Assembly (NCBI GenBank): GCA_964604705.1
Contig: CAZSAP010000001.1
Coordinates: forward strand, 363,500 to 427,499
From: an uncultured bacterium
GTDB taxonomy: Bacteria > Oederibacteriota > JAAXVQ01
DNA: 64,000 nucleotides
Direction of reading: 5' to 3'
Positions 9,672-55,013 of the stretch are shown here, piece after piece. How positions within the stretch are numbered: position 1 is the stretch's first letter; each line of letters opens with the position of its first letter. A program made the position numbers and the translations under genes. A model generated the notes under the pieces. The model ran no database searches and was not told the DNA's origin. It saw only the letters and a list, made by a program, of their open reading frames with translations.

Positions 9672-9708
9672 TCATTTTTTAAAAAACAACATAGCTGATA
9701 TTTTATCA

Positions 9709-9740: not shown

Positions 9741-9796
9741 ATTTTCTTTTGTAATTTTTAATCACTTTCCATTTTCAATTTTCAATTCTCGATTTT

Positions 9797-11665: not shown

Positions 11666-11725
11666 TCGCTACTCCTTTTGGCTATGCCGATTTTCTATTC
11701 TCTTTTTTCTATTGTCTTTTAATGT

Positions 11726-13630: not shown

Positions 13631-13681
13631 TCGCTACTCCTTTTGGCTACGCCGATTTTCTATTCTCTATTTTCTATTGTT

Positions 13682-15850: not shown

Positions 15851-15954
15851 GATTACTCGCCTTTGTGTGAATTTCCCTGCAGAAGGGTGCCAGAGACGGC
15901 AGAGATCTTACCAAATCAACCTTCAGGGTACAACCTTTTGGTTCAATGACAATT

Positions 15955-15997
15955 GTAAAAAAAAAAACGCCCTTTTTGGAAATCCCAACGGGGCGTT
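15955..15997 (-). terminator. Rho-independent terminator downstream of cargo gene G
   Basis: aacgccc (15966-72) pairs with gggcgtt (15991-97). On the minus strand it is followed by an 11-T run (rc of the a-run at 15950-15965). Confidence 0.6.
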
Positions 15998-16081
15998 TTC
16001 CGAACGTTAAAACACTAGGCCGACCGCCGGTCGCCTCTACGTTTTTTTAAACTTCACTTTCCATTTTCGATTCTCGATTTT

Positions 16082-18336: not shown

Positions 18337-18378
18337 TAAAAAAAAAAAGCGCCTCCGGCGTTACCACCAGAGGCGCTT
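18337..18378 (-). terminator. Rho-independent terminator of glnA
   Basis: agcgcctc (18348-55) pairs with gaggcgct (18370-77). On the minus strand it is followed by T10 (rc of the a-run at 18338-18347). Confidence 0.65.
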
Positions 18379-19819: not shown

Positions 19820-19898
19820 TGCATTCCTCCTGGTAATGTTCAGCCGATGCGCCTAAACATCGGTGACTATATCTACAGCCAACGTCCAGCCCTTATAT

Positions 19899-19915
19899 AG
19901 CAACACCTATGCCAA
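19899..19915 (-). promoter_or_regulatory. Sigma-54 (-24/-12) promoter of glnA
   Basis: Minus-strand TTGGCAT-AGGTG-TTGCT, with GG-N10-GC spacing, about 85 nt upstream of the glnA ATG. Confidence 0.6.
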
Positions 19916-20037
19916 TTTATTTAGCGTCCTTGTTTTTTTTTATCCTTTAAAAACAAGCACTTTTACTCACTCTCAATCCAAGCCCAGTTTCTCAATCTTA
20001 CAAAAATACAAATGTGTATTAATGCTTTTAAAAATTA

Positions 20038-21612: not shown

Positions 21613-21848
21613 ATCTCACTCTTCTATATTGAATTGACAAAATTCAGCGCGGGCCAATTTATAACATTTTTGTATTTATGTAAAGAATTTAAACTACTTT
21701 TTTGAAAAAAAACCATACTTCCAGACATACACTTCCCTAAACCCTGAACATCCGGATAAATTTTTCTTCGCAATAAAACACACATAAAAGAAGCTTTTCC
21801 AGAAATCACAACTACCAAAATGTAGTTAAAATACAAATTCCTACACCT

Positions 21849-21865
21849 TCGGCATATTAATTGCT
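21849..21865 (+). promoter_or_regulatory. Sigma-54 (-24/-12) promoter of amtB1-glnK1
   Basis: cGGCATattaaTTGCt: GG at 21851-52 and GC at 21863-64 (N10 spacing), about 60 nt upstream of the ATG at 21926. Confidence 0.55.
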
Positions 21866-21925
21866 TTTAACTACAACTTCGAAATTATGATAAAAATCAT
21901 TACGCGAATCAAAGGAGCTACACAA

Positions 21926-23248: not shown

Positions 23249-23321
23249 CAACTCCCCCTCACTCCCCCTCTTTACCAAAAAGGGGGGACGGGGGGCGTTA
23301 TTCCACGAAAGGAATATTTCC

Positions 23322-23663
23322 ATGAAAAAGATTGAAGCCTTTATTCAACCCGAACAATTCGAGAGTGTTAAGAAAGAGCTTTTTGCCGCTCAGGTCTTTA
23401 AAATGAGCGTTTCCCAAGTGCGCGGATGTGGCCAACAAAAAGGCTATACCGAAAGTTTTCGGGGACAAATCGTAGAGATAAATCTCTTGCCCAAAACCAA
23501 GATCGAAATTGCCGTTAATGAAGATTTCGTACAACCCACCATTGACGCCATTATCCGAGGGGCGCGGACCGGTAATATCGGCGATGGCAAAATTTTCGTG
23601 ACGGAATTGCTGCAATGCATTCGCGTCCGCACCGGAGAGACCGGTCACGACGCCATTGGTTAA
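23322..23663 (+). CDS. glnK: Nitrogen regulatory protein P-II, copy 1
   Basis: MKKIEAFIQPEQFESVKKELF...RTGETGHDAIG. 113 aa, AAGGA RBS, immediately downstream of amtB1. Confidence 0.88.
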   Translation: MKKIEAFIQPEQFESVKKELFAAQVFKMSVSQVRGCGQQKGYTESFRGQIVEINLLPKTKIEIAVNEDFVQPTIDAIIRGARTGNIGDGKIFVTELLQCIRVRTGETGHDAIG

Positions 23664-23933
23664 TTGCTCCCCAAGAAAATCGCATCAACCTCCAACCTTC
23701 AAACAACAATGTCGCGATTCCCTTCTGAGGGATCGCCTAATTTAAAAAATACATTTATGAATTAATTATATAATTCGATACACAATTGAAATAATAACAA
23801 ATATGATTTTTGGTCTTTTTTAAAAAAAAAATTTCATCCCACAAAAAAACTCCCCGTGTCTATCCTTTAATTTCAAGACTTTACATCAAGATCCTTTACC
23901 CCGGCTTGTAATAAACACTACCATCCTTTTCCA

Positions 23934-23951
23934 TTGGCATCCATCTTGCAT
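23934..23951 (+). promoter_or_regulatory. Sigma-54 (-24/-12) promoter upstream of the porin gene
   Basis: TTGGCAT-CCATC-TTGCA: GG at 23936-37 and GC at 23948-49, about 140 nt upstream of the ATG at 24094. Confidence 0.55.
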
Positions 23952-24093
23952 TAGTCCTAGGCAAATGGAAATAACCCACGGTTAATGACTATTGGGTAGG
24001 AAAGGAGCTGGCTCGCTATGAAACCCACTAAGGCAAAGATTTAACGACAGATCTACCGAGTGCGTTCAAATAAAAAAACACAAGGAGAATATC

Positions 24094-25170
24094 ATGAAAA
24101 AAATCACGATTTTGAGTTTACTGAGCTTGAGTCTAATCGGAACTATGGCAGGAGCGGAAGAAGCAAAAAGCTTGAAGTGGTACGACAAAATTGCTGTAAG
24201 CGGTTACTTGGATGCCTATTACCAAGCTAATTTCAATGGTTTAAGCGGTAGCATCACCGGTCGGGCGTTCGACAGCCGGCAGAATGAATTTTCGTTCTCT
24301 GGTGCGAAGGTCTCCATGTCCACAACGGATCCTTCCACCGGTGTCGGTGGTGTGCTCGATTTGCTGTACGGCCCCACGTCCATGTTGGTAACAGGCGGAC
24401 CTGTCGAGCAGGCGTTCGCGACCTTCTCCTTAGGCCCCATCGGATTCAAGGCCGGTAAGTTCACCACGCATGTCGGCTACGAAGTTATTGAAACACCCCT
24501 AAACTTGAACTACAGCCGTTCGATTTTGTTCAACCAAGTTCCCTTCTACCATGTCGGCGCCCTGGCCACTTACACCCCGCTGGAAGGTGTTGCCATGATG
24601 GCTGGAGTGGTTAACTCGAATTCAGCTGAACAAGCCAATGACGAAGCCAAGGATTATGCAGCCCAAGTAACTTTCAGCAAGATTGCCGGACTTAGCTTGA
24701 TTGCCAATTATTATCTCGAATCCAATCGTGCGGCCACAGCCGATGCCCCTTTTGAAAACACCCACTATATGGAAGTCGTGGGCAATTACCAAGCCTTGCC
24801 TGTACTTGGATTAGGTTTGGACTATCTGTACAAAACCACGCTGCCATCTCCGGCCAAAGATGCTGACGGCAATCCGCTCGGCAGCGCCTCCAGCACCAAG
24901 TCGCAAGGGTATGCACTCTATGCAAACTACGTCACACCGATCAGCGGACTTTCGGTGCTTCCGCGCTTTGAACAGTGGTACGCCCCGGACGTGTACGCCT
25001 TGGCCTTCGACTATACGCTGACGCTTAAATACGCCATGGGGGCTCTTACCCATGCCCTCGAACTCCGCAAAGATATCGCCTACCCAGGCGTATACGCCCC
25101 CAAGGCCGGAGAAACTGAATTGCTTAGCGATCAAATGACTTTAACGTACGGAGTTATGTACAGTTTCTAG
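24094..25170 (+). CDS. Outer-membrane beta-barrel porin (signal peptide, C-terminal Phe)
   Basis: MKKITILSLLSLSLIGTMAGA signal peptide. Alternating amphipathic strands. Ends ...TLTYGVMYSF. Confidence 0.65.
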   Translation: MKKITILSLLSLSLIGTMAGAEEAKSLKWYDKIAVSGYLDAYYQANFNGLSGSITGRAFDSRQNEFSFSGAKVSMSTTDPSTGVGGVLDLLYGPTSMLVTGGPVEQAFATFSLGPIGFKAGKFTTHVGYEVIETPLNLNYSRSILFNQVPFYHVGALATYTPLEGVAMMAGVVNSNSAEQANDEAKDYAAQVTFSKIAGLSLIANYYLESNRAATADAPFENTHYMEVVGNYQALPVLGLGLDYLYKTTLPSPAKDADGNPLGSASSTKSQGYALYANYVTPISGLSVLPRFEQWYAPDVYALAFDYTLTLKYAMGALTHALELRKDIAYPGVYAPKAGETELLSDQMTLTYGVMYSF

Positions 25171-25245
25171 CAAACCGTTTCTTCGATTTAAGCACGAAAA
25201 CCACTTGAACGAATGGGCGTTTAAGCATACAATTATCCCTTCAAA

Positions 25246-25285
25246 CCCCTGTCCGTGATTGCTGCGGACAGGGGTTTAATTTTAA
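25246..25285 (+). terminator. Rho-independent terminator of the porin gene
   Basis: cccctgtccg-tgattgctg-cggacagggg, a perfect 10-bp stem, followed by tttaatttt. Confidence 0.7.
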
Positions 25286-25313
25286 ATCCGTAAAAGAAGG
25301 ATAGTAAACGTCC

Positions 25314-27287
25314 ATGTTTAAAAAGCTTAAACAATTGTTTCTCGGTAAAGCCATCAACCCCACCCAAGCCGGCATCTTTCATCAGCTCAGTCTGGTCGCC
25401 TTTATGGCTTGGGTCGGTTTGGGTGCCGACGGGCTTTCCTCGTCAAGTTACGGTCCCGAAGAACTCTTTCGGGCCTTAGGACCCGAACACACCCATTTGG
25501 CCTTATATTTGGCTGTGGCTACGGCCATTACCGTGTTTATCATTGCCGCCAGCTACATGCAAATCATTAAGCTCTTCCCAGCCGGTGGCGGCGGTTATGT
25601 GGTTGCCAGCAAGTTCCTGGGATCCAAAGCCGGGGTGGTTTCAGGTACCGCCCTTATCGTCGATTACATCTTAACCATCTCCCTATCTATTGCCGCCGGT
25701 GTGGACGCGATATTCAGCTTTTTGCCTCCGGAATGGATCGGCGCCAAAGTGACTACCGAGGCCGCACTATTGTTGATCCTTATTTGGATGAACATGCGCG
25801 GACTAAAAGAAAGCATCAAAGTATTAATGCCTATTTTTATTGCTTTTTTAGTCACCCATGTCATCTTACTCTCGGCCGGCATTTTCGGACACGCCCACGG
25901 TCTCCCCAACGCGGTACAGGCCACGTTCAGCGAAACGCAACAAACCATTTCCCAAATCGGCTGGTTTGGCCTGTTGGCGCTCCTCTTACGCGCCTACAGC
26001 TTGGGCGCCGGTACCTATACTGGAATCGAAGCCGTTTCCAATGGTATGTCCACCTTGCGTGAACCCCGGGTTCAAACCGGACATAGAACCATGTTGTACA
26101 TGGCGATTTCCTTGGCCATCACCGCCGGCGGCATCTTGCTCAGCTACATGTTGTGGGATGTTCGAATACTTCCCGGAAACACCCAAACGCTCAATGCCGT
26201 ACTCACAGAAAAAGTAATGGGTGGTTGGCAATGGGGGAACATCCCCATCGGTCAATGGCTTATCTACCTCACATTAATTTCCGAGGCGCTCCTTTTGTTC
26301 ATCGCTGCCCAAACTGGGTTCGTGGGAGGTCCCACCGTCCTGGCCAACATGGCAGTGGACTCCTGGGTCCCCCACCGTTTTGGCGATCTCTCCGATCGAC
26401 TGGTTCGTACCAACGGAATTATATTCATGGGCATCACATCCTTGGCCATCCTGATACTGGCCAAAGGAAGTGTGCATATTATGGTGGTGCTATACTCCAT
26501 TAACGTCTTCATCACCTTCTCCCTTTCCCAATTGGGTACCTGTCTGCACTGGTGGAAAATACGCAAGACCGACAAACAATGGTTTTCCGGATTTATGATC
26601 AACGGCATCGGACTCATTTTAACCACACTTATTTTAGTAGTGACCACCGTGCTCAAATTCACTCAAGGCGGTTGGATGACGTTGGTCATCACCGGCGGGT
26701 TGGTAATTCTGTGCGCGGTTATTAAGTTCCATTATTCCAACATACGCAAAGCCTTAGGTCGTTTGGATGAACTTTTGACCAACCTCACGGTTACTAATCC
26801 CCATCCGGTTACTGCCGAGTGCGATCCAACACTCCCGACCGCGATTCTGCTGGTCAGTGGCTACAACGGACTCGGGATTCACTCCATCTTCTCGATCCGA
26901 AAGCTTTTCCAAGATAAGTTCAAGAATTTCGTCTTCATTTCCGTGGGACGCGTGGATTCCAGTCGGTTTAAGGGGATTGAGGAAATCGAAAACTTAAAGC
27001 TCGCAACTGAAAAAAGCCTACAGCAATATGTAACCATGGCTCAGCATATGGGATACGCAGCCGAGTACCGATATGTGCTGGGTACCGACGTTATCGAAGA
27101 AATCGAAAAAATGTGTGATGAATTGGCTCGCAACTTCAGCGAACCGATTTTCTTTGCCGGGAAATTGATCTTTGCCAAGGAAAACTTTTTCTCGAAAATA
27201 TTGCACAATCAGACGGCCTTGGAAATCCAACGCCGCCTGCTTTTCAAAGGTAACAACATGGTCATCGTACCCATACGCGTTTTATAG
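25314..27287 (+). CDS. APC-superfamily permease with ~200-aa C-terminal cytoplasmic domain
   Basis: 657 aa. Twelve predicted TM segments with an APC-like GxG-rich TM1, plus a soluble C-terminal domain. Confidence 0.65.
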   Translation: MFKKLKQLFLGKAINPTQAGIFHQLSLVAFMAWVGLGADGLSSSSYGPEELFRALGPEHTHLALYLAVATAITVFIIAASYMQIIKLFPAGGGGYVVASKFLGSKAGVVSGTALIVDYILTISLSIAAGVDAIFSFLPPEWIGAKVTTEAALLLILIWMNMRGLKESIKVLMPIFIAFLVTHVILLSAGIFGHAHGLPNAVQATFSETQQTISQIGWFGLLALLLRAYSLGAGTYTGIEAVSNGMSTLREPRVQTGHRTMLYMAISLAITAGGILLSYMLWDVRILPGNTQTLNAVLTEKVMGGWQWGNIPIGQWLIYLTLISEALLLFIAAQTGFVGGPTVLANMAVDSWVPHRFGDLSDRLVRTNGIIFMGITSLAILILAKGSVHIMVVLYSINVFITFSLSQLGTCLHWWKIRKTDKQWFSGFMINGIGLILTTLILVVTTVLKFTQGGWMTLVITGGLVILCAVIKFHYSNIRKALGRLDELLTNLTVTNPHPVTAECDPTLPTAILLVSGYNGLGIHSIFSIRKLFQDKFKNFVFISVGRVDSSRFKGIEEIENLKLATEKSLQQYVTMAQHMGYAAEYRYVLGTDVIEEIEKMCDELARNFSEPIFFAGKLIFAKENFFSKILHNQTALEIQRRLLFKGNNMVIVPIRVL

Positions 27288-27353
27288 CATACCTTGGGGA
27301 CAAGGCATTCCTTGCCCTACCATTAACTAACGGTTTTCGCGGAGCTATACACC

Positions 27354-28724
27354 ATGACGTCCATAGCCGAGTATTGGTCCAGTTTAAGCGCCGGCAAGGT
27401 GCTATTAAACATTTTTCCCTTCGCCTTGTTGTTACTGCTTATCGCCGTTATGCCACTGTGGAACTCGGTCGCCCATTGGTGGGAAAAAAACACCAACAAA
27501 TTAATCGTCGCACTTGTTTGTGGAAGCGCCGGGGTTCTTTTGTATGTAATCCCAACCCACGACGGCGCCCATCTTCTAAATACCGTTTTGGAGTATGCGG
27601 CGTTTATCAGCCTCTTGGCCGCACTTTTCATTGTCAGCAGCGGCATCGTTATTTCCGGTGCGTTTGCAGGTTTCCCCTGGATCAATACACTGTTTCTAGG
27701 CATCGGCGCCTTGTTGGCCAGTTTACTGGGCACAACCGGCGCCAGCATGCTCTTGATTCGCCCCCTTATCCGAGCCAATCGCCTGCGCAAACATAAAACC
27801 CACATTATCGTTTTCTTTATTTTTATCGTTAGCAATTGCGGCGGACTCTTAACCCCCCTCGGCGACCCCCCTTTATATCTCGGTTTTTTGCGCGGAGTTC
27901 CTTTTTTCTGGACCCTCCAACTCTTCCCCGAGTGGTTGGTAACCAACTTTCTGTTGCTGGTGGTTTTCCATTTCCTGGATGAACGGTATTTTTTCAAGGA
28001 AGAACTCGCCACTAAAAACGAATTGGCTCAAGAAATCGCCAATGCTGAAAAACCACTGCATATTCGCGGAAAACGCAATTTCATTTATCTCGCCGCGGTT
28101 CTCGCCACTGTGCTTTTATCCGGTTCGGTGTTACCCTCTGTCTTGCACGCGTGGCTGACTCCCGAACACGCCGAACATTGGGCCAAGGTCGCCCAAATCA
28201 TCCTTTTGGGTAGCATTGCCTGGTTTTCTTTCCGCAACACACCGTCCTCCATTCATGAACACAATCATTTTAGTTCTGCCCCGATTGTCGAAGTCGCAGT
28301 CTTGTTCTTGGGTATTTTCGGAGCCATGCTCCCAGCCTTGGCCGTGTTGGAACATTCCGCCCCGCGACTTCCCATTGACCAAGCTTGGCACTATTTTTGG
28401 CTTACCGGACTCCTGAGCAGCTTTTTGGATAATGCCCCGACATATATGTCTTTTGCAGCCTTGGCTGCCGGTAAATCGAACCTCAATGCTGAGCACCTTG
28501 GAGCCTTGGCGGCCCAGGCACCCAATTTGTTAAAAGCCATTGCCACAGGCGCTGTGTTTATGGGCGCCAACACCTACATTGGCAACGGCCCCAATTTCAT
28601 GGTCAAATCCATTGCCGAACATGCGCACATTAAAATGCCCTCTTTTGGCGGTTACATGCTCTGGTCCTTCGCTGTACTTATTCCTATTTTCTTCATTAAC
28701 ACGCTTATTTTTTTCAAACCTTAA
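27354..28724 (+). CDS. ArsB/NhaD-superfamily ion transporter (NhaD/arsenite-permease-like)
   Basis: 456 aa polytopic membrane protein. Motifs GGLLTPLGDPPL and FLDNAPTYMSF are typical of the ArsB/NhaD/CitMHS permease fold. Confidence 0.6.
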   Translation: MTSIAEYWSSLSAGKVLLNIFPFALLLLLIAVMPLWNSVAHWWEKNTNKLIVALVCGSAGVLLYVIPTHDGAHLLNTVLEYAAFISLLAALFIVSSGIVISGAFAGFPWINTLFLGIGALLASLLGTTGASMLLIRPLIRANRLRKHKTHIIVFFIFIVSNCGGLLTPLGDPPLYLGFLRGVPFFWTLQLFPEWLVTNFLLLVVFHFLDERYFFKEELATKNELAQEIANAEKPLHIRGKRNFIYLAAVLATVLLSGSVLPSVLHAWLTPEHAEHWAKVAQIILLGSIAWFSFRNTPSSIHEHNHFSSAPIVEVAVLFLGIFGAMLPALAVLEHSAPRLPIDQAWHYFWLTGLLSSFLDNAPTYMSFAALAAGKSNLNAEHLGALAAQAPNLLKAIATGAVFMGANTYIGNGPNFMVKSIAEHAHIKMPSFGGYMLWSFAVLIPIFFINTLIFFKP

Positions 28725-28875
28725 TCCCCCGACCCTTCTTACTTTCGTTTACAAATTATAACCAAATTGTATTTATTTATATTTTTACTTCTTATTTGTA
28801 TTTTATTTCATAATTACAACTAAAATGTCATACCGCTTTTTCCTGTATTTAAAGGTTTTTCAGCCTTCTTGTGAC

Positions 28876-28893
28876 TTGGCACAGCCTTTGCTT
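28876..28893 (+). promoter_or_regulatory. Sigma-54 (-24/-12) promoter of amtB2-glnK2
   Basis: cTTGGCAC-AGCCT-TTGCTt: TGGCAC at 28877-82 and TTGC at 28888-91. This is a perfect consensus, about 85 nt upstream of the ATG at 28978. Confidence 0.7.
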
Positions 28894-28977
28894 TATATGG
28901 AGCAGTTGAATAGGCAAGGGTGTCAACCGTCAACGATGAGACGACACATCATCGTAAATACGAAAGGAGTGGTTCTC

Positions 28978-30306
28978 ATGTTTAAAGACATACTGGTACG
29001 TTGGTTCAAGAAGTGGGGATTGCAAGCAGGTGCACTAACGCTTTTGGGATTGCCTTCGGTGGTCTCAGCCGCCGAAGGGGTTCCGCTTAACACAGGGGAT
29101 ACAGCCTTTGTTATGGCGTCCTCGGGTTTGGTCATGCTCATGACGCCGGCCTTGGGATTGTTTTACGGAGGCATGGTGCGCCAAAAAAACGTCCTTGCCA
29201 CCATCATGCAAAGTTTCATTGTACTCGGCTTGATCAGTGTCCAATGGGCACTCTTTGGCTACTCGCTGGCTTTCGGTCCTGACCACGGACATCTCATTGG
29301 CGGACTCGACTTTCTCGGACTTAACGGAGTAGGTCAAACACCCAACGCCGACTATGCGGCGACCATACCCCATCAAGTATTCATGGTATTCCAAGCTATG
29401 TTCGCGGTTATCACGCCGGCGCTCATCAGCGGAGCCTTTGCCGAACGCGTTAAGTTTTCCAGTTTTCTAGTCTTTATTCTGCTTTGGTCAACGTTCATCT
29501 ACGACCCCTTGGCACATTGGGTATGGGGTGTGGGTGGCTGGTTGCGCAACTTAGGTGCCTTGGATTTTGCCGGCGGTACGGTAGTGCACATCGCCTCCGG
29601 GTCGGCAGCTTTGGTGATGGCATTGTATCTCGGCAAGCGTCGGGGTTACCCCAAAGCCTCGATCATGCCACATAACATGACCATGGTCTTGATCGGAACA
29701 GCCTTGCTTTGGTTTGGTTGGTTCGGTTTCAATGCGGGTTCCGCCCTCTCGGCCAATGGTTTGGCGGGTACGGCGTTTATTGTGACGAACTTAGCCGCGG
29801 CCGCAGCAATGCTGTCCTGGGCGTTTGTGGAGTGGATTGTGCGCAAGAAACCCACCGCATTGGGCGCCGCTTCAGGTGCCGTCGCCGGTTTGGTTGCCAT
29901 CACACCGGCATCGGGTTTTGTTGGTCCCATGGATGCCATTATCATCGGTTTGCTGGTATCCCCCATCTGTTTTGGGGCCATTCAGATCAAGAACAAGCTC
30001 GGGTACGATGATTCATTGGATGCCTTCGGCGTGCACGGCGTAGGTGGAACCTGGGGCGCCATTGCCACCGGATTGTTTGCCAATGTTTCAATCAACTCAG
30101 CAGGCGCCAACGGTTTGTTCTACGGCAACCCCAAGCTTCTTGGGATTCAAGCGGTTGCGGTTGTGGCCACCGCCGTCTTCTCGATGTTGGGAACATACAT
30201 TTTGGTGTTCTTGGTGGATAAGGTCATGGGCATGCGGGTAGCAGAACACGAGGAACAAATCGGTCTGGATTTAACCCAACACGGTGAAGCCGGATATCAC
30301 ATGTAA
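28978..30306 (+). CDS. amtB: Ammonium transporter (Amt family), copy 2
   Basis: ATG at 28978 with AAGGAG 8 nt upstream (the track ORF starts at 28825). Paralog of 21926..23248 with the same C-terminal ...[12 protein letters not shown]. Confidence 0.88.
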
Positions 30307-30377
30307 GACTGTTGGATCACAATTATCGTAGGGACGGACGAAAATACGTACCCTACATTAAAAGGAGGATTAACATC

Positions 30378-30719
30378 ATGAAAAAAATCGAAGCGTACAT
30401 TCAACCCGAGCAATTTGAAAATGTAAAAAAAGAATTATTTGCAGCCGAGGTATTTAAAATGACCGTCTCCCATGTTCGTGGCTGCGGACAGCAAATGGGC
30501 TACACCGAAAGTTTCCGGGGACAAGTGGTCGAAATCAATTTGTTGCCCAAGATCAAGCTCGAGATCGCCGTGAACGACAACTTTGTGCAACCCACCATCG
30601 ACGCCATCATCAAAGGAGCGCGTACCGGGAACATAGGTGATGGGAAAATTTTCGTATTGGATTTGCCGCAGTGCATTCGTGTGCGCACGGGTGAAACCGG
30701 AAAAGACGCCATCGGCTGA
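30378..30719 (+). CDS. glnK: Nitrogen regulatory protein P-II, copy 2
   Basis: [21 protein letters not shown]...[22 protein letters not shown]. Confidence 0.88.
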
Positions 30720-30739
30720 TTCAAGCCGTAGGCACACCA

Positions 30740-30780
30740 CGCGAGGGCGGCCCTCCCCCGGCTGCTCTCGCGTTTTTTTT
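30740..30780 (+). terminator. Rho-independent terminator after glnK2 (also faces the convergent GNAT gene)
   Basis: GC-rich hairpin cgcgagggcggccctcccccggctgctctcgcg followed by T8. Confidence 0.65.
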
Positions 30781-34785: not shown

Positions 34786-35003
34786 CTCGGGCGGGCAAAT
34801 CTTTTCTTTTTTTACAAAATGCGTCGCTTATGCTTCGTCCCCGAAGGTCATCAACAATTTGACGCGTAACGTCCTCAAACGCGTTTTCGAACCAGGATGC
34901 GTCGGTAAAACGCTTTATGGTTATTATGGGTGGCCCTGGCATAGCCGCTGTCAGCGAGACATGAAGACGCATTTTGTAAAAAAAGAAAAGATTTGCCCGC
35001 CCG
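34786..35003. repeat. 39-bp perfect terminal inverted repeat flanking a 140-bp core (MITE-like or giant hairpin)
   Basis: Left arm tcgggcgggcaaatcttttctttttttacaaaatgcgtc (34786-34824) is the exact reverse complement of the right arm 34965-35003. It lies between the MFS and GH130 genes. Confidence 0.6.
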
Positions 35004-35129
35004 AAACCTCATTGCCGAATTCACCAGGTCTTACTCCAAGTCATCGGTCGTAAAAATAAAGAAGCGGAGCCCCGCTTACGCGAAACTCCGCCTGCCCCAC
35101 TGTTTCAGGTCCGCTGTGATTACCGCATG

Positions 35130-36553: not shown

Positions 36554-39493
36554 ATGTTTCACTTCGTACATAAAATCCTGCGTCTGTTTTCCCTTTTATG
36601 TCTGCTCGTCTTCACATCCGCCGTATCTCAGGCGACGACTTATACGGTCACCTCCGATGCCGACAGCGGCGCCGGTTCCTTACGTGATCAGTTGACCTTG
36701 GCCAACACCAACCCCGGAGCGGATATCATTGATTTTTCCGGTCCCATGTACATTACCGTAACCAGCGGGGCCTTGGCCGTCACCGACCGGGTCCGCCTCG
36801 ACGGCGGTGGCCAGGTGGTGCTTGCCAGTAACGGAAGCCTCATTGCACTGCGTCTGGTGGGAAGCAGCCAAGGCAGCACGATTACCGGCATGGCGTTTGT
36901 CAAGGCCACGGCCATGTACACGCCGGCGTTGGAAATCGCCACCAACAACAACCGTCTTTACGGCTGCCGCATCGGCACCGACTGGAACGACTCCCCAGGC
37001 TTGGGCAGCTATTATGGCTGCAGCGTCTATGGGTCGTTCAATGACATCGGCGGCTCCACTCCGGCCGAACGCAATGTTTTTGCGAACAACAGCATTGGCC
37101 TGCAAACCATGAACACCTGGTGTTGCCGCGTTCGCGGGAATTATTTCGGCCTAAATTCCTCAGGCACAGGTGCCCTGGCCAACATCTATGGGATTGTCGC
37201 CGATTACAATACCCGAGCAACATTGTTTGGAGGCGATCGCCTGGCCGGTGAGGGCAACGTGATAAGCGGCAACAGCGCCTACGGTGTTTATATGGACTCC
37301 ACGGCGTTTGGAAACACACTGTGCGGAAACATTGTTGGACTTACACCTGCCATGGACGCCCGCATAGCCAACCAGTTCGGCATTAGCGTCTACGGAGCCC
37401 GGGGCAACGCCTTCGGTTTGCCGGGCAGCGGTTATGAAAACATTATTTGCGGGAGCTCGGCAAATGGGTTGGAGCTCACGGGAAATGTAGGTTCCGAACC
37501 CGTTCCGCGCTACAACACCATCCGCAACAACTATATCGGTATCACCCCCAACGGAACCGTTTTCGCCAACGATCGCGGAATCTATTTAAACCACGTGGAA
37601 TACACCCTGATCGGAGGCGATTACCTGCTGCAACAGGGCAACCTTATCTCCGGCAATTACAACGAGGGGATTTACTTGTGCGACGGCAACAACAATTCCG
37701 TATGCGGCAATTCCATTGGCACCGATCCTACGGGCAACAACAGCGTACCCAATTCCTACGGGATCTATCTGGGCGGAGGCAGCGGCAACATCCTGGGCAA
37801 CACCTCCACCGGCAGCAGCGTGCTCGGCAACTTAATCTCAGGCAACAATTATCATGGTATATATCTGGATAAATACGTTTTCTCAGCGCCGTTGGTCAAC
37901 AACAGCATAGCCGGCAACCTCATAGGCATCAACCTGGCCAACAACGCGGCCCTGCCCAACGGACGTTCGGGCATCTATGTCAACAATGCAAGTTTTACCC
38001 GTATCGGTGGTCCGGGTGGAGATTTGCAAAACACCATTGCCGGCAATACCCATTACGGCATTGCCGTGGCCAACAGTTCGGATACAACCATCCAAAGCAA
38101 CTACCTTGGAACCGACACTACCGGCACACTGCAAATCAGCAACCAGTTAAACGCAATTCAAATCTCATCGTCCCCACGCACCTTGATCGGCGGCGTGGGC
38201 GGCAACCTCGGGAATCTCATTTGCGGTACCGGAGCCGCAGGCGTGGCCGGCATTTCCCTCAACAACAGCAGCGGCAACACCCTTGCAGGCAATGCCATCG
38301 GCGTGCTTTCCACGGGCGTTCCGGCCTCGCCCAGTTTTACCCATGCTGTTTTTCTGACCAACACCTGCACCGACTCCCTGATCGGCCAACCCACAGGCGG
38401 CCTCGGCAACCTGATGGCCGGCACCACGTACGGCATCACCCTTGGCAACCATACCTGCATTCGAAACTCGTTTTACTCCAACACCGTTTGTGCCTTCGGC
38501 ACCCAGGGTATCCAACTGCTCAGCGGAGCCAATGCCAGTAAAACCGCACCTGTGATTTCCACGGTCGGATTAAGCCTCGCGCAAGGCACGTCCGGCGCCA
38601 ACGACCACATCCAATTGTTCCTCTCCGATCGTGGCGCTGGGGTCAACGGAGGCAGCTTGCGCCTGGTGGGTGAAGGCTCGGCAGACGGCAGCGGCAATTG
38701 GTCCATTGGCGTTTCGGGCCTTCAATACGGCGACTATGTTTCAGCCCTAGCCACGAATGCATCCGGCAGCACTTCCGGCTTTAGCCTGAATTCGGTGGTC
38801 GCCTTGCCTCCGTCTCCCACGCCAAGCCGGACAACCACTTCCACAACCACCCCCACCCCCACGCTCACGGCGACGGTCACACCAACGCCCACAGCCTCCG
38901 CCAGTGCCTCTCCGTCTCCCACAGAAACCCTTACGGCCACAGCCACACCTACGGGCACAGCATCCCCCACGATCACCCCAACCCAAACCCCAACGTCCAC
39001 AGCGACCTTGACCCCAACCATTACCACCACCTACACGGTTTCCTGCACAGCCACGCCCACAAGCACCGTAACCTTCACCTGCACTCCCTCCTCCACCTTC
39101 ACGATCACCCTTACGCTCCCGCCAAGTTTCACGGCCACACATACAACAACACCTTATCCGACTGAAACGGCAACCCCTACGTCTTCCCTCACACCCACCA
39201 TCACCTCCACGCTCACGGCGCAAACTGTAGTACTCTCTCCCTGGGTAGGTACTGCTTTCCCCAATCCCGCACGAGGGCAAGTTAAATTTATTTTACCCGC
39301 GGCCTTGGCCAGCGAAATAACGGTTTACAATCTTTCCGGCGAGCGGATTGCAAGCGTGCGTGAAAACCAAGCTTATACCGAACCCCATATCATCGTCTGG
39401 GATTGTACCGGCATAGCCCCAGGCATCTATGTGGCTGAAGTGAAGGTGGATGGAAAATGCGTCAAACGCATTAAATTTGCATTAGTCAAATAG
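36554..39493 (+). CDS. Secreted CSLREA-motif beta-helix protein with long Thr/Pro linker and T9SS-type C-terminal domain (cargo H; the only plus-strand member)
   Basis: 979 aa. MFHFVHKILRLFSLLCLLVFTSAVSQATTYTVTSDADSGAGSLRDQLTLAN. More than 25 GN..G beta-helix turns. A ~180-aa T/P/S linker. C-terminus ...GIAPGIYVAEVKVDGKCVKRIKFALVK. Confidence 0.8.
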   Translation: MFHFVHKILRLFSLLCLLVFTSAVSQATTYTVTSDADSGAGSLRDQLTLANTNPGADIIDFSGPMYITVTSGALAVTDRVRLDGGGQVVLASNGSLIALRLVGSSQGSTITGMAFVKATAMYTPALEIATNNNRLYGCRIGTDWNDSPGLGSYYGCSVYGSFNDIGGSTPAERNVFANNSIGLQTMNTWCCRVRGNYFGLNSSGTGALANIYGIVADYNTRATLFGGDRLAGEGNVISGNSAYGVYMDSTAFGNTLCGNIVGLTPAMDARIANQFGISVYGARGNAFGLPGSGYENIICGSSANGLELTGNVGSEPVPRYNTIRNNYIGITPNGTVFANDRGIYLNHVEYTLIGGDYLLQQGNLISGNYNEGIYLCDGNNNSVCGNSIGTDPTGNNSVPNSYGIYLGGGSGNILGNTSTGSSVLGNLISGNNYHGIYLDKYVFSAPLVNNSIAGNLIGINLANNAALPNGRSGIYVNNASFTRIGGPGGDLQNTIAGNTHYGIAVANSSDTTIQSNYLGTDTTGTLQISNQLNAIQISSSPRTLIGGVGGNLGNLICGTGAAGVAGISLNNSSGNTLAGNAIGVLSTGVPASPSFTHAVFLTNTCTDSLIGQPTGGLGNLMAGTTYGITLGNHTCIRNSFYSNTVCAFGTQGIQLLSGANASKTAPVISTVGLSLAQGTSGANDHIQLFLSDRGAGVNGGSLRLVGEGSADGSGNWSIGVSGLQYGDYVSALATNASGSTSGFSLNSVVALPPSPTPSRTTTSTTTPTPTLTATVTPTPTASASASPSPTETLTATATPTGTASPTITPTQTPTSTATLTPTITTTYTVSCTATPTSTVTFTCTPSSTFTITLTLPPSFTATHTTTPYPTETATPTSSLTPTITSTLTAQTVVLSPWVGTAFPNPARGQVKFILPAALASEITVYNLSGERIASVRENQAYTEPHIIVWDCTGIAPGIYVAEVKVDGKCVKRIKFALVK

Positions 39494-43444: not shown

Positions 43445-43933
43445 ATGACGTTGTCCGATCCACTTGAGGCCCCTATTCGTCATGCGCTCGCCCCACTTCC
43501 GTCCGGTGTGACCTTGCTGGTAACCGTAGGCAATTCCCTGCGTTCCGACGATGCGGTGGGGCCTTACCTTGCCGATCGTCTAGCACTGCGTCATCCGGGA
43601 TACCGCCTGCTCCATGTCGGCCATCAACCCGAATCCATGCTCGAAGATGCACCCCCACTCAACCCTAAAAAAATCATTATTCTGGATGCGGCCGAATTCC
43701 AGGGGGTGCCTGGCGAGATCCGCCTCCTCCCGCCCGAAGCGATTCCCCAAAACGCACTTGGCACCCATTCACTTTCCTTAAGCACCCTGGCGCTTACGCT
43801 GCGCCAAACGCTCGGCGCCGAGGTCCACTTTGTAGGCATTCAACCCGTATGTTTTGCTTGGGGTGAAACGCTTTCCCCAGCCGTCCAAGCCAGTGCCGAT
43901 CGCTTGTTGCGCTTTTTCAACGACCTTGTCTAA
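43445..43933 (+). CDS. Hydrogenase maturation endopeptidase (HyaD/HybD/HycI family)
   Basis: 162 aa. LLVTVGNSLRSDDAVGPYLADRL matches the GN-x-L-x-x-DDG-x-G family motif. No hydrogenase gene is in the window. Confidence 0.7.
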   Translation: MTLSDPLEAPIRHALAPLPSGVTLLVTVGNSLRSDDAVGPYLADRLALRHPGYRLLHVGHQPESMLEDAPPLNPKKIIILDAAEFQGVPGEIRLLPPEAIPQNALGTHSLSLSTLALTLRQTLGAEVHFVGIQPVCFAWGETLSPAVQASADRLLRFFNDLV

Positions 43934-43969: not shown

Positions 43970-43998
43970 CTTGACAGGCAGCCGACTTCTACGCTAGA
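43970..43998 (+). promoter_or_regulatory. Sigma-70-type promoter for the ilv leader
   Basis: TTGACA (43970-75), then an 18-nt spacer, then TAGACT (43994-99). The leader ATG is 30 nt downstream. Confidence 0.45.
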
Positions 43999-44030
43999 CT
44001 ACGTCCAATTCTTTGGATCGAGGATCCCTA

Positions 44031-44117
44031 ATGCAGCGCAAACTTACGGCGACAACTCAAGTAGTATCCTGCTTACTGGTAGTAGTAAGCGTAGCCGTAG
44101 TAGCGTACGCGCCATAG
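44031..44117 (+). CDS. ilvBN leader peptide (28 aa, Val/Leu-rich) for transcription attenuation
   Basis: AGGAT RBS then ATG. MQRKLTATTQVVSCLLVVVSVAVVAYAP with 9 Val among 17 consecutive residues. It is followed by a terminator hairpin and ilvB. Confidence 0.7.
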   Translation: MQRKLTATTQVVSCLLVVVSVAVVAYAP

Positions 44118-44148
44118 GGGATACTGAAGAGACCAAAATTTCTCAAAA

Positions 44149-44185
44149 CCCCTGCTGGTGCGAACCGGCGGGGGTTTTGCTTTTT
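44149..44185 (+). terminator. Attenuator terminator between the ilv leader and ilvB
   Basis: cccctgctgg-tgcgaa-ccggcggggg (10-bp stem with 2 G-U pairs) then ttttgcttttt. Alternative pairing of gccatagggg (44111-20, overlapping the leader stop) with the 5' arm gives a plausible antiterminator. Confidence 0.65.
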
Positions 44186-44237: not shown

Positions 44238-45917
44238 ATGTTTCAAGAAACAGGTGCCAATCTTATTGTCCGTCTGCTCGAACGCCAAGGAATCCGGATC
44301 GTCACCGGCATTCCCGGCGGCATGAACCTTCCGCTTTATGACGCGTTTTCCAAAAGTACGGTCATCAAACATGTCTTGGCCCGGCATGAACAAGGGGCGG
44401 GATTCATGGCCCAAGGCATGACCCGTTCCACGGGCAAACCCGCAGTCTGCCTGGCCACTTCCGGCCCTGGGGCTACGAACATTCTCACGGCCATTGCCGA
44501 TGCCAAATTGGATTCCATTCCGATCATCTGCATCACCGGCCAAGTGCCAGTGCCTTTGATCGGTACGGACGCGTTTCAAGAAGTCGACACCTACGGCATG
44601 ACGCTTCCCATTACCAAACACAATTTCCTGGTGCGCAATGCCTCCGAGTTGCTCACGGTCATTCCCGACGCCTTCCGCATCGCCCTCTCCGGCCGTCCGG
44701 GACCTGTGCTTATCGATGTGCCGAAGGATGTACAGAATCAAACGGTCTCCTTTGACGCCTGGCCTGAACCCGGGGTTGCGGTCCCCACACCCCAAACCAC
44801 GACCAATGATTTGGCCTTGGCCGCCAAACTGATCAACGAAGCGCAACGCCCCATGTTCTACTTGGGCGGCGGCGTGGTGCATGCCGAAGCCTGGGAGCTG
44901 ATGCGCACCATCGTGGACAAAACCAACATCCCCTCGGTCATGTCGTTGTTGGGTTTGGGCATCTTGCCTTCGGATCACCCGCGTTCGCTGGGCATGCTGG
45001 GCATGCACGGCGCCCGCTACGCCAACTGGGCGTTGGAAGAATGCGACGTGCTGGTGGCCATCGGCAGCCGCTTTGGCGACCGTGCCACGGGCAAAGTCGC
45101 CCAATTTTGTCCTCAGGCCAAAATCATCCACTTTGACATTGACCCGAGCGAGATGGACAAGATCAAGAAAGTCGACCTCTCGATCCTCGGCGATGTGCGC
45201 GACACGTTGAGTGCGTTGCTCCCCAAACTGGAGGCCAATGACCGCACAGCTTGGCTGGCGCGGGTGGCGGCTTTGAAAAAAGAACATCCTTTGTATCCTG
45301 AGGCTGAGAATCTGGATCCGGCAGGCTTGATCCGCACCGTAGGACGTCTGCTCCCGGAAAACGCCATTATCTCCACCGACGTGGGGCAGCATCAAATGTG
45401 GACCGCCCAAAATTATCCCCACCGCCAACCGCGCTGCTGGATGACCTCCGCCGGTTTGGGAACCATGGGGTTCGGCGTGCCCGCGGCCATTGGGGCGGCT
45501 TTGGCTCATCCCGATCGTACGGTGGTAAGCTTTTCAGGGGATGGAAGCTTGTTGATGAACATTCAGGAAATGGCCACCATGGTGGAGGAAGACTTGAATG
45601 TGAAAATCATTCTTTTCGACAATCAAGCCTTAGGCTTGGTCCACCAACAGCAGGACTTGTTTTTTGGCAAACGGTACTTCGCGTCCAACTTTAAATTTAA
45701 GACCGATTTCATTCGCATTGCGCAAGGATTTGGACTGCGCGCCTTGACCTTGAACGGTTCAACCGAACCCGAATTCCTGCTGGAAGAAGCCTTGCGCATG
45801 AAAGGCCCCTTCTTGATTCACGTGCCCATGGATGTGCACGACAAGGTTTTCCCCATGGTTCCACCCGGGGCTGCGAATAAAGACATGATGGGAGGTGACA
45901 CCCATGACCGCGCCTAA
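44238..45917 (+). CDS. ilvB: Acetolactate synthase large subunit
   Basis: ATG at 44238 with AAAGGAG 7 nt upstream. TPP enzyme motifs GIPGG, GPGATN and GSRFGDRATG. Confidence 0.9.
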   Translation: MFQETGANLIVRLLERQGIRIVTGIPGGMNLPLYDAFSKSTVIKHVLARHEQGAGFMAQGMTRSTGKPAVCLATSGPGATNILTAIADAKLDSIPIICITGQVPVPLIGTDAFQEVDTYGMTLPITKHNFLVRNASELLTVIPDAFRIALSGRPGPVLIDVPKDVQNQTVSFDAWPEPGVAVPTPQTTTNDLALAAKLINEAQRPMFYLGGGVVHAEAWELMRTIVDKTNIPSVMSLLGLGILPSDHPRSLGMLGMHGARYANWALEECDVLVAIGSRFGDRATGKVAQFCPQAKIIHFDIDPSEMDKIKKVDLSILGDVRDTLSALLPKLEANDRTAWLARVAALKKEHPLYPEAENLDPAGLIRTVGRLLPENAIISTDVGQHQMWTAQNYPHRQPRCWMTSAGLGTMGFGVPAAIGAALAHPDRTVVSFSGDGSLLMNIQEMATMVEEDLNVKIILFDNQALGLVHQQQDLFFGKRYFASNFKFKTDFIRIAQGFGLRALTLNGSTEPEFLLEEALRMKGPFLIHVPMDVHDKVFPMVPPGAANKDMMGGDTHDRA

Positions 45918-46197
45918 ATCCCAACAAACGGTTTTGGAACTCACAGTCAACAATCATCCGGGCGTTATGTCCCACGTGGTTGGCCTGTTTTCGCGGCGGG
46001 CGTTTAATGTCGAAGGAATCTTATGCATGCCGGTTACGGACACCGACACCAGCCGGATTTGGCTGCTGGTAAACAACGACGAGCGCTTGGAACAATTGAT
46101 CAAGCAATTGGAAAAACTACAGGATGTCAAAGAGGTACGCCCCAGCGGCGCCTCGCATGATGTCTTTGTACGCTTAGAAAACTTGTTTAACCCTTAA
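45895..46197 (+). CDS. ilvN: Acetolactate synthase small (regulatory) subunit, short ACT-domain form
   Basis: QQTVLELTVNNHPGVMSHVVGLFSRRAFNVEGI ACT domain. It overlaps the ilvB stop. The start is GTG at 45895 or ATG at 45904. Confidence 0.8.
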   Translation: MTPMTAPKSQQTVLELTVNNHPGVMSHVVGLFSRRAFNVEGILCMPVTDTDTSRIWLLVNNDERLEQLIKQLEKLQDVKEVRPSGASHDVFVRLENLFNP

Positions 46198-46214
46198 GAC
46201 AAGATCACACGTTT

Positions 46215-46350
46215 GCGTGGAGGTAGGACTGTGTGGTTGGAAAAGCCTCAGAGGAAATCCTTATCAACAGAGGATTTCCGATGCGGAACGAACCTCTCCG
46301 AGGTGAGTACCTTTTCCAACCACACAGTCCTACCTCCACGCATTTTTTCA
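46215..46350 (+). terminator. Giant palindromic hairpin (31-bp perfect stem) plus T-tract downstream of ilvN
   Basis: gcgtggaggtaggactgtgtggttggaaaag (46215-45) is the exact reverse complement of 46311-41. A nested 9-bp hairpin ggaaatcct/aggatttcc sits at 46253-79. It is followed by cattttttc. Confidence 0.6.
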
Positions 46351-46467
46351 ACAAACCTGTTAGACAGCCCCCTTTTTTTCAGCTACAATTCATGAGTTTT
46401 TTAAAATTTCAACCACTGCCTTACGCCGGCTGCACGCGCCTGGCGTAGGCCCGGAGAGGATTCGATC

Positions 46468-48372
46468 ATGAGCCTGTTAAAGAAAATCGGTTGGGGGTTA
46501 CTTTGCCTACTGGGCGCGGGTGCGTTTGCCATGGTCGCCGGGTGGCTCCATCCGGCCGAGAAAGTCAATGCCCTCTGGATCGTCACAGCCGCCGCTTGTT
46601 TTTATGTCATTTCCTACCGATTTTACGCAGCGTTTGTAATGTCCAAGGTGCTTTCCATAGACGACACCCGCATCACTCCGGCCTATCGACTCAACGACGG
46701 CATCGACTACCATCCCACCAACCGCTGGGTCCTTTTCGGACACCACTTCGCGGCCATCGCCGGTGCCGGTCCGTTGATCGGCCCCATGTTGGCGGCCCAA
46801 TTTGGCTATCTTCCCGGCTTCCTCTGGATCCTCATCGGTTCGGTCTTTGCCGGGGCCGTGCACGACACGGTCATCCTGGCCGCGTCGGTTAAGCGCGATG
46901 GGCAGTCACTGGCCCAAATCGCCAAAGCCGAGATCGGCCCGATTGGGGGCGCGGCTGCCTCCCTGGCGGTTATTTTCATCATCATCGTGGCCTTGGCGGG
47001 TTTAGGTCTGGCCGTGGTCAACGCTCTTTCTGAAAGCCCCTGGGGTACGTTCACCATCGCCATCACCATCCCGATTGCTTTTTGCATGGGCATCTATCTA
47101 AAATACCTGCGCCCCGGAAAAGTAGGCGAAGTAAGTGTGATCGGAGTCTTCCTACTTACGGGTGCCGTCATTGCCGGCCATTGGATCCCCGGATCGCCGC
47201 TCGAACCCTACTTCACGCTCTCCCGCAACAGCATGGTCTTGGCCATGGCACTCTATGGACTTTTGGCTTCCATTCTTCCCGTCTGGATGCTGCTCTGCCC
47301 TCGCGACTATCTCTCCACCTATATGAAAATAGGCACGATTGTCCTCTTGGCCATCGGCATTGTGTTCATGGCCCCCCAGGTGCAGATGCCGGCCTTCACA
47401 ACGTTCATTCATGGCGGAGGACCCATCATCCCCGGAAAGCTCTTTCCGTTTATGTTTATCACCATCGCCTGTGGCGCCATATCCGGATTTCACTCACTCA
47501 TCTCTTCAGGCACCACACCCAAGATGATCATGCATGAACGCGAAATTAAGATGATCGGGTTTGGCGCCATGCTGACCGAAGGGTTCGTGGGCATGATGGC
47601 GTTGATCGCAGCCACGATCCTTATTCCCGGCGATTACTTTGCCATCAACACCAAGCTGACGTTCGAACAATTGGCGGCCATGGGATTCCCGGTCAAAGAG
47701 ATCATGCAGCTCTCACAAGAAATCGGAGTCAATGTCGTAGGACGCCCGGGCGGGGCGGTCTCGCTGGCGGTGGGCATGGCCACCATCTTGGACGACATCC
47801 CCGGCATGAAAGGACTCATCGCCTACTGGTACAATTTCGCCCTTATGTTTGAAGCCCTGTTTATTCTAACCACCGTGGACACCGGCACCCGGGTCGCACG
47901 GTTTCTACTCCAGGATATGGGTGGTTATGTATTCAAACCTTTGCGCCAACGTTCCTGGATGCCAGGCATCATTGTCACCAGTCTCATGGTCGTAGTTTCT
48001 TGGGCGTATCTTATTTATTCTGGCAGTGTATCAACCATATGGCCCATGTTTGGAGTAAGCAACCAACTTTTGGCGGCGGTCGCGCTGGGAATCGGCTCGG
48101 TGATCATCATTAAGGAAGGCAAAGGCAAGTATGTCTGGGTCACGTTGCTGCCCATGGCATTTATGTTCGTGACGACCCTTACGGCGTCTTGGGAACTATG
48201 GGGTTTGTTCTTAGGCAAAGCAGCGGCCGCCACGGATCCGAGCGCCGCCCGAACCTTTAAAATCGATGCAGGCTTGGTTGCCCTGATGGCGCTTTTGGCC
48301 ATTGTGGTGCTCATTGATTTGCTGATCAAAGGCATACAAGCATGGAAGACCAAACCCGCCATGCAAGCGTAA
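46468..48372 (+). CDS. cstA: Carbon starvation protein A (peptide/pyruvate transporter family)
   Basis: 634 aa. MSLLKKIGWGLLCLLGAGAFAM...YRFYAAFV is a CstA-typical N-terminus. Confidence 0.88.
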   Translation: MSLLKKIGWGLLCLLGAGAFAMVAGWLHPAEKVNALWIVTAAACFYVISYRFYAAFVMSKVLSIDDTRITPAYRLNDGIDYHPTNRWVLFGHHFAAIAGAGPLIGPMLAAQFGYLPGFLWILIGSVFAGAVHDTVILAASVKRDGQSLAQIAKAEIGPIGGAAASLAVIFIIIVALAGLGLAVVNALSESPWGTFTIAITIPIAFCMGIYLKYLRPGKVGEVSVIGVFLLTGAVIAGHWIPGSPLEPYFTLSRNSMVLAMALYGLLASILPVWMLLCPRDYLSTYMKIGTIVLLAIGIVFMAPQVQMPAFTTFIHGGGPIIPGKLFPFMFITIACGAISGFHSLISSGTTPKMIMHEREIKMIGFGAMLTEGFVGMMALIAATILIPGDYFAINTKLTFEQLAAMGFPVKEIMQLSQEIGVNVVGRPGGAVSLAVGMATILDDIPGMKGLIAYWYNFALMFEALFILTTVDTGTRVARFLLQDMGGYVFKPLRQRSWMPGIIVTSLMVVVSWAYLIYSGSVSTIWPMFGVSNQLLAAVALGIGSVIIIKEGKGKYVWVTLLPMAFMFVTTLTASWELWGLFLGKAAAATDPSAARTFKIDAGLVALMALLAIVVLIDLLIKGIQAWKTKPAMQA

Positions 48373-54817: not shown

Positions 54818-54854
54818 TTTTTACCTACAGTGCAAACAAAGTGATGCATGCATT

Positions 54855-54968
54855 GGGCGCAAATGTAAAGATGTGAAAGCATAGAGGCCATCCGTCTCGT
54901 AAAAAGGATGGCCGATCTGAGCGAGGCTCTCTGAACCGAGCGTCTTTCACAGTTTTACATCTGCGCCC
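54855..54968 (+). promoter_or_regulatory. Long imperfect inverted repeat with internal hairpins in the metY leader (candidate riboswitch/attenuator or IR element)
   Basis: gggcgcaaatgtaaagatgtgaaag (54855-79) pairs with ctttcacagttttacatctgcgccc (54944-68), 25 bp with 2 mismatches. It encloses the GGCCAUCC...GGAUGGCC hairpin. It ends 45 nt before the metY ATG. Confidence 0.4.
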
Positions 54969-55013
54969 ACTCAAACATTACTCTACTACTACGCTGTTGA
55001 AAGGGCTATTTCC

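Follow-up and report, generated by a model that had tools for sequence, protein, structure and literature searches.

What is the long palindrome that separates ilvN, the last gene of the ilvBN operon, from cstA, and how did it come to stand in that place? The original prediction was that a REP/MITE-like insertion had been co-opted as the ilvBN terminator, with a stable structured small RNA as the alternative. We approached the question within the window, by which we mean the whole stretch of DNA analysed (64,000 nucleotides), and in public sequence collections. The reading that we favour, with a probability of about 0.6, is that the palindrome is a copy of a small non-coding, hairpin-forming intergenic repeat, lineage-specific and MITE/REP-like, which was gained in the slot of the ilvBN terminator.

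The palindrome between ilvN and cstA

The palindrome predicted beside ilvN is real, and only its size needed correction: it had been given as a 31-bp stem in an element of 127 nt, while the actual element, el1, covers 129 nt of the forward strand, with arms of 32 nt each that are 100% complementary and enclose 65 nt. The features of el1, of its neighbours and of a second element, el2, are as follows.

45904–46197, + strand: ilvN, 97 aa, ACT-domain small subunit of acetolactate synthase, last gene of ilvBN (exact protein on a Logan contig; Pfam ACT/ACT_AHAS_ss; ilvB upstream).
46214–46342, + strand: el1, complete palindromic element; perfect 32-nt arms, 65 nt between them; fold z = −12.2; covariance model 145.6 bits (+) versus 67.5 (−).
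46214–46245, + strand: left arm of el1; the outer 18 nt (46214–46231) may be the 5′ half of a resident terminator, the inner 14 nt (46232–46245) lie in the conserved unit.
46246–46310, + strand: core of el1, 65 nt, a three-way junction with hairpins H1 and H2 in the predicted fold; motif AGAGGnnATCC...GGATnnCCGAT; 62% identical to the el2 core.
46311–46342, + strand: right arm of el1, complementary to the left arm.
46232–46324, + strand: inner conserved unit of el1, 93 nt, TGTGGTTGGAAAAG + core + CTTTTCCAACCACA; the part demonstrably homologous to el2 54872–54951 (segment identities, permutation tests).
46343–46348, + strand: T6 tract, orthologous to the T-tract of the terminator in the relative L125; region 3′ of the hairpin 62/88 identical.
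46361–46389, + strand: cstA promoter-like site TAGACA-17-TACAAT; −10 hexamer kept in the relative.
46468–48372, + strand: cstA, 634 aa (Pfam CstA match; 89% identical to the downstream gene of the relative).
54854–54969, + strand: el2, second family member, 116 nt (nhmmer match; inverted repeat; fold z = −7.7; covariance model 98.3 bits (+) versus 30.8 (−); identical copy in Logan contig L123).
54872–54951, + strand: inner conserved unit of el2, 80 nt, TGTGAAAG + core + CTTTCACA (segment identities, permutation tests).

The calculated RNA fold of positions 46205–46360 has a free energy of −89.4 kcal/mol, as against −38.8 ± 4.1 kcal/mol for dinucleotide shuffles (z = −12.2), and none of 200 shuffled sequences was equally stable. 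In this fold the 32-bp stem closes a three-way junction with two small hairpins: H1 (46253–46262 with 46270–46279; eight Watson–Crick pairs plus U-A and U.G) and H2 (46292–46296 with 46300–46304).

The stop codon of ilvN ends at 46197, and el1 starts 16 nt downstream. As the original prediction had it, a T6 tract stands directly 3′ of the stem and the promoter region of cstA comes right after the palindrome: the sigma-70-like site TAGACA-17-TACAAT has its −35 element 18 nt downstream of the stem, and the ATG of cstA is at 46468. The immediate flanks of el1 are ...CGTT on the left and TTTTTT on the right. The window has just one occurrence of the arm sequence.

An independent short-read assembly (Logan ERR3839026) bears on whether so long a palindrome is genuine. 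One of its contigs ends in the left arm of el1 and another begins in the right arm; since an assembler with k = 31 breaks in this way at a perfect inverted repeat of at least 31 bp, the palindrome is no artefact of one assembly. The contigs of the source organism in this set (end of L001/L126, start of L124, end of L131) break at perfect or near-perfect palindromes, namely both el1 arms and a terminator hairpin at 1927–1969.

It should be noted that the region upstream of ilvB (43971–44179) has the form of a classical attenuation leader: a promoter-like site at 43971–44000 is followed by an open reading frame for a Val/Leu-rich leader peptide of 28 aa (MQRKLTATTQVVSCLLVVVSVAVVAYAP, 44031–44117) and then by a 16-bp hairpin with a T-run (44144–44179).

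A second copy and its distribution

If el1 is a repeat, related copies should exist, and the original prediction was made dependent on them. A diverged copy, el2, was found by a sensitive nhmmer search in the window itself, 8.6 kb from el1, in the spacer that follows a cupin gene (end at 54817) and precedes a metY-type O-acetylhomoserine sulfhydrylase gene (start at 55014). Its arms (54854–54879 and 54944–54969) are 26 nt long and pair with two mismatches and one G.T (88%), and its core of 64 nt contains H1 (54886–54893 with 54906–54913) and H2 (54925–54929 with 54933–54937). The predicted fold (z = −7.7) consists of the same long stem and two hairpins as in el1. The flanks of el2 are ...GCAT on the left and CTCA on the right; inspection of the flanking sequence revealed no T-tract after it. 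Thus, the two elements have the same architecture, nearly equal interiors (65 and 64 nt) and the same orientation, and each lies in a spacer between co-directional genes; the GC content is 52%.

The two copies, about 60% identical, were aligned by hand on the basis of their structure. Their cores share 62% identity, a likeness that is significant (local score 43, reached by 0/500 shuffles), and the motif AGAGGnnATCC-loop-GGATnnCCGAT has exactly two occurrences in the window, one in each element and both on the same strand, where 0 would be expected by chance. The four innermost arm bases are identical as well. Conservation falls off outwards: the outer 22 nt of the arms share 11/22 positions (50%; p = 0.026, with a shared TGTG included), and the outer 18 nt share 7/18 (p = 0.21). 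Each copy has TG at its start and CA at its end, and in both there are exactly 22 nt from the terminus to the point of the indel in the arm. Among 39 comparable base pairs, three are broken, all of them in el2, and 13 have changed on both sides with pairing kept; of these 13, nine belong to the outer stem and two each to H1 and H2.

A covariance model run with filters off recovered only el1 and el2 in the window, and the + strand scored far better than the − strand for both (145.6 versus 67.5 bits and 98.3 versus 30.8 bits), indicating that the core is asymmetric and that both copies are oriented like their flanking genes.

The source organism is poorly sampled: its proteins form singleton clusters, known from only one NCBI assembly and one sequencing run. 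Among 185,579 species-representative genomes the best IlvN matches are 70–75% identical and spread over several phyla. The nearest relative that we found, a JGI metagenome contig (L125) with IlvN 80% and CstA 89% identical, keeps the order ilvB-ilvN-cstA with an ilvN-cstA spacer of 132 nt, versus 270 nt in the source organism. At the position of el1 this relative has a perfect palindrome of 34 nt (TTTGCAGGGAACAGGCA|TGCCTGTTCCCTGCAAA) followed by ATTTTT, that is, an ordinary terminator. The sequence 3′ of the hairpin, comprising the T-tract and the cstA promoter region with TACAAT, is identical at 62/88 positions (70%) between the two, and the T-tract 3′ of el1 is therefore ancestral. The outer arm of el1 and the arm of the L125 terminator agree at 5/12 positions excluding the TGC anchor, which is not significant (p = 0.40). 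The 5′ leader of cstA (about 46400–46460) is longer than that of L125 by about 36 GC-rich nucleotides, among them a short hairpin (CTTACGCC...GGCGTAGG).

The picture at the second locus is similar. Two relatives with MetY 91% and 86% identical keep the cupin-metY order, with spacers of 39–50 nt versus 196 nt; el2 is missing from these spacers, and they contain no hairpin. Hence, neither element is present in the syntenic orthologous spacers of the nearest relatives, all of them different species. When an nhmmer profile and the covariance model were run over about 50 kb from the closest relatives (filters off) and over 1.26 Mb from diverse phyla, neither set contained a member with the core. 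Because two homologous elements at unrelated loci cannot each have formed where they stand, and because both are missing from the syntenic sites of relatives, we regard el1 and el2 as copies of a repeat gained in this lineage; judging by their absence from other species, both would have entered it once it had separated from the nearest relatives sampled.

Wider searches returned nothing that resembles the family. An exact 18-mer from the middle of the el1 arm had 0 matches in the 185,579 species-representative genomes, and only chance matches of 15–19 nt in metagenome and viral contigs. The structured core motif matched viral contigs 11 times, 0 times with the full architecture, and it occurred in none of the loci fetched. 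Low-stringency blastn of el1, el2 and an element at 34.8 kb (described below) against plasmids, phages and E. coli genomes gave chance matches only, and with el1 as query a word-11 blastn at E ≤ 1 matched none of 5,426 complete E. coli genomes, so that el1 cannot be ERIC, a repeat of about 127 bp that E. coli genomes carry. No homologue of the six-frame pseudo-protein of el1 and el2 was found among 5.8 billion protein clusters. Rfam yielded nothing at the gathering threshold over the whole window and, on el1 and el2, only sub-threshold matches to microRNA precursors (at most 34 bits against thresholds of 60–195), which are typical of any long hairpin. There were no Rfam matches to known ribozymes, riboswitches (including the SAM classes upstream of metY), Y RNA, SRP RNA or tRNA-like RNAs. 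By inspection, an integron attC site or a retron is unlikely, given that housekeeping genes flank the elements and that the domain search gave neither an integrase nor a reverse transcriptase. A Pfam scan of 30 ORFs of the window detected neither a transposase nor a RAYT domain, and no other ORF of the window resembles one. As far as these searches reach, the el1/el2 family is uncatalogued.

The window contains other palindromes, none of which belongs to the family. That at 15509–15641 lies inside an ORF of 722 aa and lacks the core. An imperfect one at 7486–7581, with 28-nt arms that are 79% complementary and a branched interior, is the best match of the covariance model outside the family (19 bits), with no significant likeness to the core; it lies between two minus-strand genes for secreted proteins. 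A third, unrelated one is a palindromic insertion of 218 nt at 34787–35004, with perfect AT-rich arms of 39 nt (TCGGGCGGGCAAATCTTTTCTTTTTTTACAAAATGCGTC), an interior of 140 nt and a fold z of −10.4. The MFS-GH130 spacer that holds it measures about 405 nt, as against only 14 nt in L125, which is collinear. The interior of this insertion shows no likeness to the el1/el2 core, and its plasmid matches are not meaningful. It may be a further MITE or else an invertible stretch of DNA.

With regard to genes, large paralogous secreted proteins with near-identical N-termini (...QAATITVTSNANSGAGTL...) are encoded at 4746–18202 and 36554–39493; one of them has NosD-like and T9SS C-terminal sorting domains, another DUF285 repeats. 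The 979-aa copy at 36554–39493 and hycI (43445–43933) are absent from L125, which is otherwise collinear. A nitrogen-regulation cluster occupies 18398–30719, with glnA, a sigma-54 activator with a GAF domain and two ammonium-transporter/P-II pairs (21887–23663 and 28825–30719).

Nature of the repeat and of the part that may have moved

Bacterial MITEs are small elements with terminal inverted repeats around a core and without a transposase of their own; they are expected to have flanking target-site duplications, several dispersed copies in the genome and a cognate insertion sequence or transposase that has matching ends and acts in trans (PMC3184786). Both copies here are far below the usual limit of about 400 bp, have arms of 32 and 26 nt (perfect and 88% paired, respectively) around cores of 64–65 nt and encode no transposase, and the presence/absence pattern at orthologous sites that is expected of MITEs holds for el1 and el2 alike. 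In these respects they resemble ERIC, Correia/CREE and RUP (PMC3184786), which are about 105–160 bp long, have arms around a core, form long stable stem-loops, lie in intergenic DNA, are often co-transcribed at the 3′ ends of genes, vary in presence between relatives and encode no transposase. Unlike them, el1 and el2 have no consistent target-site duplication (TT/TT at el1, trivial in a T-run, and nothing shared at el2), no TA flanks and no known cognate insertion sequence, and their termini are the least conserved part and their interior the most conserved, the reverse of classical MITEs. Two copies were counted in the 64-kb window; two copies that are only about 60% identical are unlike a recently active MITE family.

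REPINs, the RAYT-mobilised REP doublets (Bertels and Rainey 2011, PMC3116915), offer another comparison. They are symmetric extragenic hairpins of about 70–110 nt in which compensatory changes are common, they lack target-site duplications, and they are thought to act as single-stranded-DNA hairpins. Compensatory changes that keep the hairpin are plain in our pair of sequences as well (13 pairs compensated and 3 broken of 39). REPIN ends are invariant (REP 16-mers) and the spacer is looser, whereas in el1 and el2 the order is the opposite (outer arms 7/18, core 62%, inner arm ends 100%), and no RAYT gene lies in the window. Overall, the elements are an ordinary kind of small bacterial repeat, and the family itself is uncatalogued; their mobility would be provided by an enzyme acting in trans.

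Two explanations dispense with mobility or make it incidental. That el1 is an ordinary terminator grown long in place, or a product of faulty assembly, we regard as very improbable. Its position with a T-tract suits growth in place, and the terminators of this organism already have unusually long stems, yet there is a homologous second copy at an unrelated locus, and the extra 93 nt of el1 include the core common to el2; as for faulty assembly, the independent read set reproduces the el1 arms and all of el2. A functional structured RNA, either cis-regulatory or an sRNA derived from the 3′UTR, with an active core and a stem that acts as an RNase III or stability determinant, has a little more in its favour, and we still consider it improbable. 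Compensatory changes in H1 (A-U,A-U to C-G,C-G) and H2 fall within well-aligned motifs, both copies are oriented as their flanking genes with the + strand scoring far better, and both regions are probably transcribed. Against this, Rfam gave no match beyond the spurious sub-threshold microRNA-precursor ones, ilvBN/cstA and cupin/metY share no functional theme, and covariation between two sequences only cannot separate selection on an RNA from the upkeep of single-stranded DNA or of a palindrome. The elements are also absent at orthologous sites whose flanking genes are 80–91% identical, so that these genes do not need them. The original prediction of a REP/MITE-like insertion thus remains the favoured one: a related copy lies 8.6 kb away, the orthologous spacers lack the elements and the T-tract is ancestral, with a terminator activity that the sequence suggests.

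The question of which part would have moved is more delicate. The ordinary terminators of the source organism have near-perfect stems of 13–16 bp, loops of 4 nt and a T-run (e.g., 9708–9741, 18348–18377 and 30738–30774), and the ilvB attenuator hairpin at 44144–44179 has the same form of stem, tetraloop and T-run. When the inner unit (46232–46324) is removed from el1, a 16-bp stem with a tetraloop remains, TGCGTGGAGGTAGGAC-TG|CA-GTCCTACCTCCACGCA, with T6 behind it. Removal of the inner unit thus leaves a terminator of the local form at the position where L125 has its 34-nt palindrome, which suggests that the inner unit of 80–93 nt is the real repeat. No separate ancestral hairpin is left at the el1 site. 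Of the three non-Watson–Crick positions of el2, two (G.T and A.G) fall exactly where the outer arm meets the inner unit, and they would make up the two halves of a GA|GT tetraloop. We therefore favour, at roughly even odds, an inner unit that is the true repeat and was inserted in the tetraloop of the resident ilvBN terminator. In such an event the host stem would extend the stem of the inner unit itself and the terminator would keep working, and the conserved, covarying core could be the recognition structure for an enzyme. More tentative, with the odds against it, is the stronger proposal that the inner unit (TGTG...AAAG + three-way-junction core + CTTT...CACA) is a non-autonomous element that seeks the apex of long terminator-type hairpins and makes no target-site duplication.

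Insertion into a loop has to be weighed against transposition of the whole palindrome of 116–129 nt (TG...CA) as a classical MITE, which would have displaced the ilvBN hairpin and whose arms would since have diverged, their pairing being kept by selection or by self-correction of the palindrome. We think this less likely than not, though about level with insertion into the loop. The TG and CA ends common to both copies, the equal distance of 22 nt from terminus to arm indel, the likeness of the outer 22 nt at p = 0.026 (TGTG included) and the relatives that have no resident hairpin at the el2 site all count for movement of the whole element, and compensated arm changes are known in REPINs (PMC3116915). 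The ends and the hairpin-free cupin-metY spacers of the relatives speak directly against insertion into a loop, as does the fact that both presumed resident stems would be exactly 16 bp. Movement of the whole palindrome, for its part, needs a clean loss of the ancestral hairpin with the T-tract still adjacent; beyond TGTG the likeness of the arms is not significant (7/18, p = 0.21); the termini are least conserved, the reverse of MITEs and REPINs, whose ends are recognition sites; and there is no target-site duplication.

Elements that target hairpins are not without parallel, and group IIC introns sit next to terminators. Such a safe-harbour strategy is known for some autonomous insertion sequences and group II introns and is not known for a miniature non-coding element. 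If the inner unit did enter a loop, it would sit at the exact apex of a resident terminator-type hairpin, comparable to the insertion of IS1397 and ISKpn1 into REP loops and of IS621 into REP (cited in PMC3184786). Those are either autonomous and at least 1 kb long or introns with known enzymes, whereas the inner unit is a non-coding sequence of 80–93 nt whose targeting is read from two sites.

Probable termination at ilvBN and wider meaning

From its sequence and position, el1 with its T6 tract probably terminates ilvBN transcription ahead of the cstA promoter. A GC-rich stem with an immediate U-tract at the end of an operon is found at el1, the base of the stem being UGCGUGG/CCACGCA with 0 nt to U6, and not at el2. 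The geometry is not the simple one usual for terminators, the stem having 32 bp and a branched interior of 65 nt, and a scan with a terminator consensus did not call el1. We suppose that during transcription of ilvBN the interior would fold first into its two small hairpins; the 3′ arm, on leaving RNA polymerase, would then zip onto the free 5′ arm from the inside outwards and end at the U-tract, and the zipped stem with U6 would release the transcript before the cstA promoter is reached. Since the opposite strand has no T-run after the stem, any such termination would be one-directional only; and since el2 has no U-tract, termination would be a feature of the context of el1, not of the family. 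The perfect 32-bp RNA duplex is also a likely substrate of RNase III.

Co-transcription of MITEs at the 3′ ends of genes has precedent (PMC3184786), and a further precedent is SPRITE of S. pneumoniae (PMC3049150, 2011), an interspersed repeat of about 105 bp with an 18-bp duplex, much longer than in normal terminators, and a U-rich tract. It too lies near the 3′ ends of genes, where it is enriched, is a proposed co-opted terminator, has no established target-site duplication and is confined to one species group. SPRITE is unrelated in sequence to el1 and el2, AT-rich and present in about 30 similar copies, and it lacks a branched conserved core; it brings its own T-rich tract, whereas el1 makes use of a resident one and el2 has none.

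Taken together, these results make el1 and el2 an uncatalogued addition to the small palindromic repeats that colonise the spacers between bacterial genes, in a lineage of which hardly any relatives have been sequenced. They have a practical side as well: palindromic repeats like el1 fragment k-mer assemblies of the source genome, and at this very locus assemblies with k = 31 are broken by the perfect 32-bp arms, which matters for the binning and annotation of such genomes. For the ilvBN operon, el1 is a clean comparative example of a repeat in a terminator slot that reuses the ancestral T-tract. Should insertion into the loop hold genome-wide, the family would represent a miniature element that uses the apices of terminator hairpins as neutral landing sites, and its conserved structured core would be a handle by which to look for the enzyme responsible.
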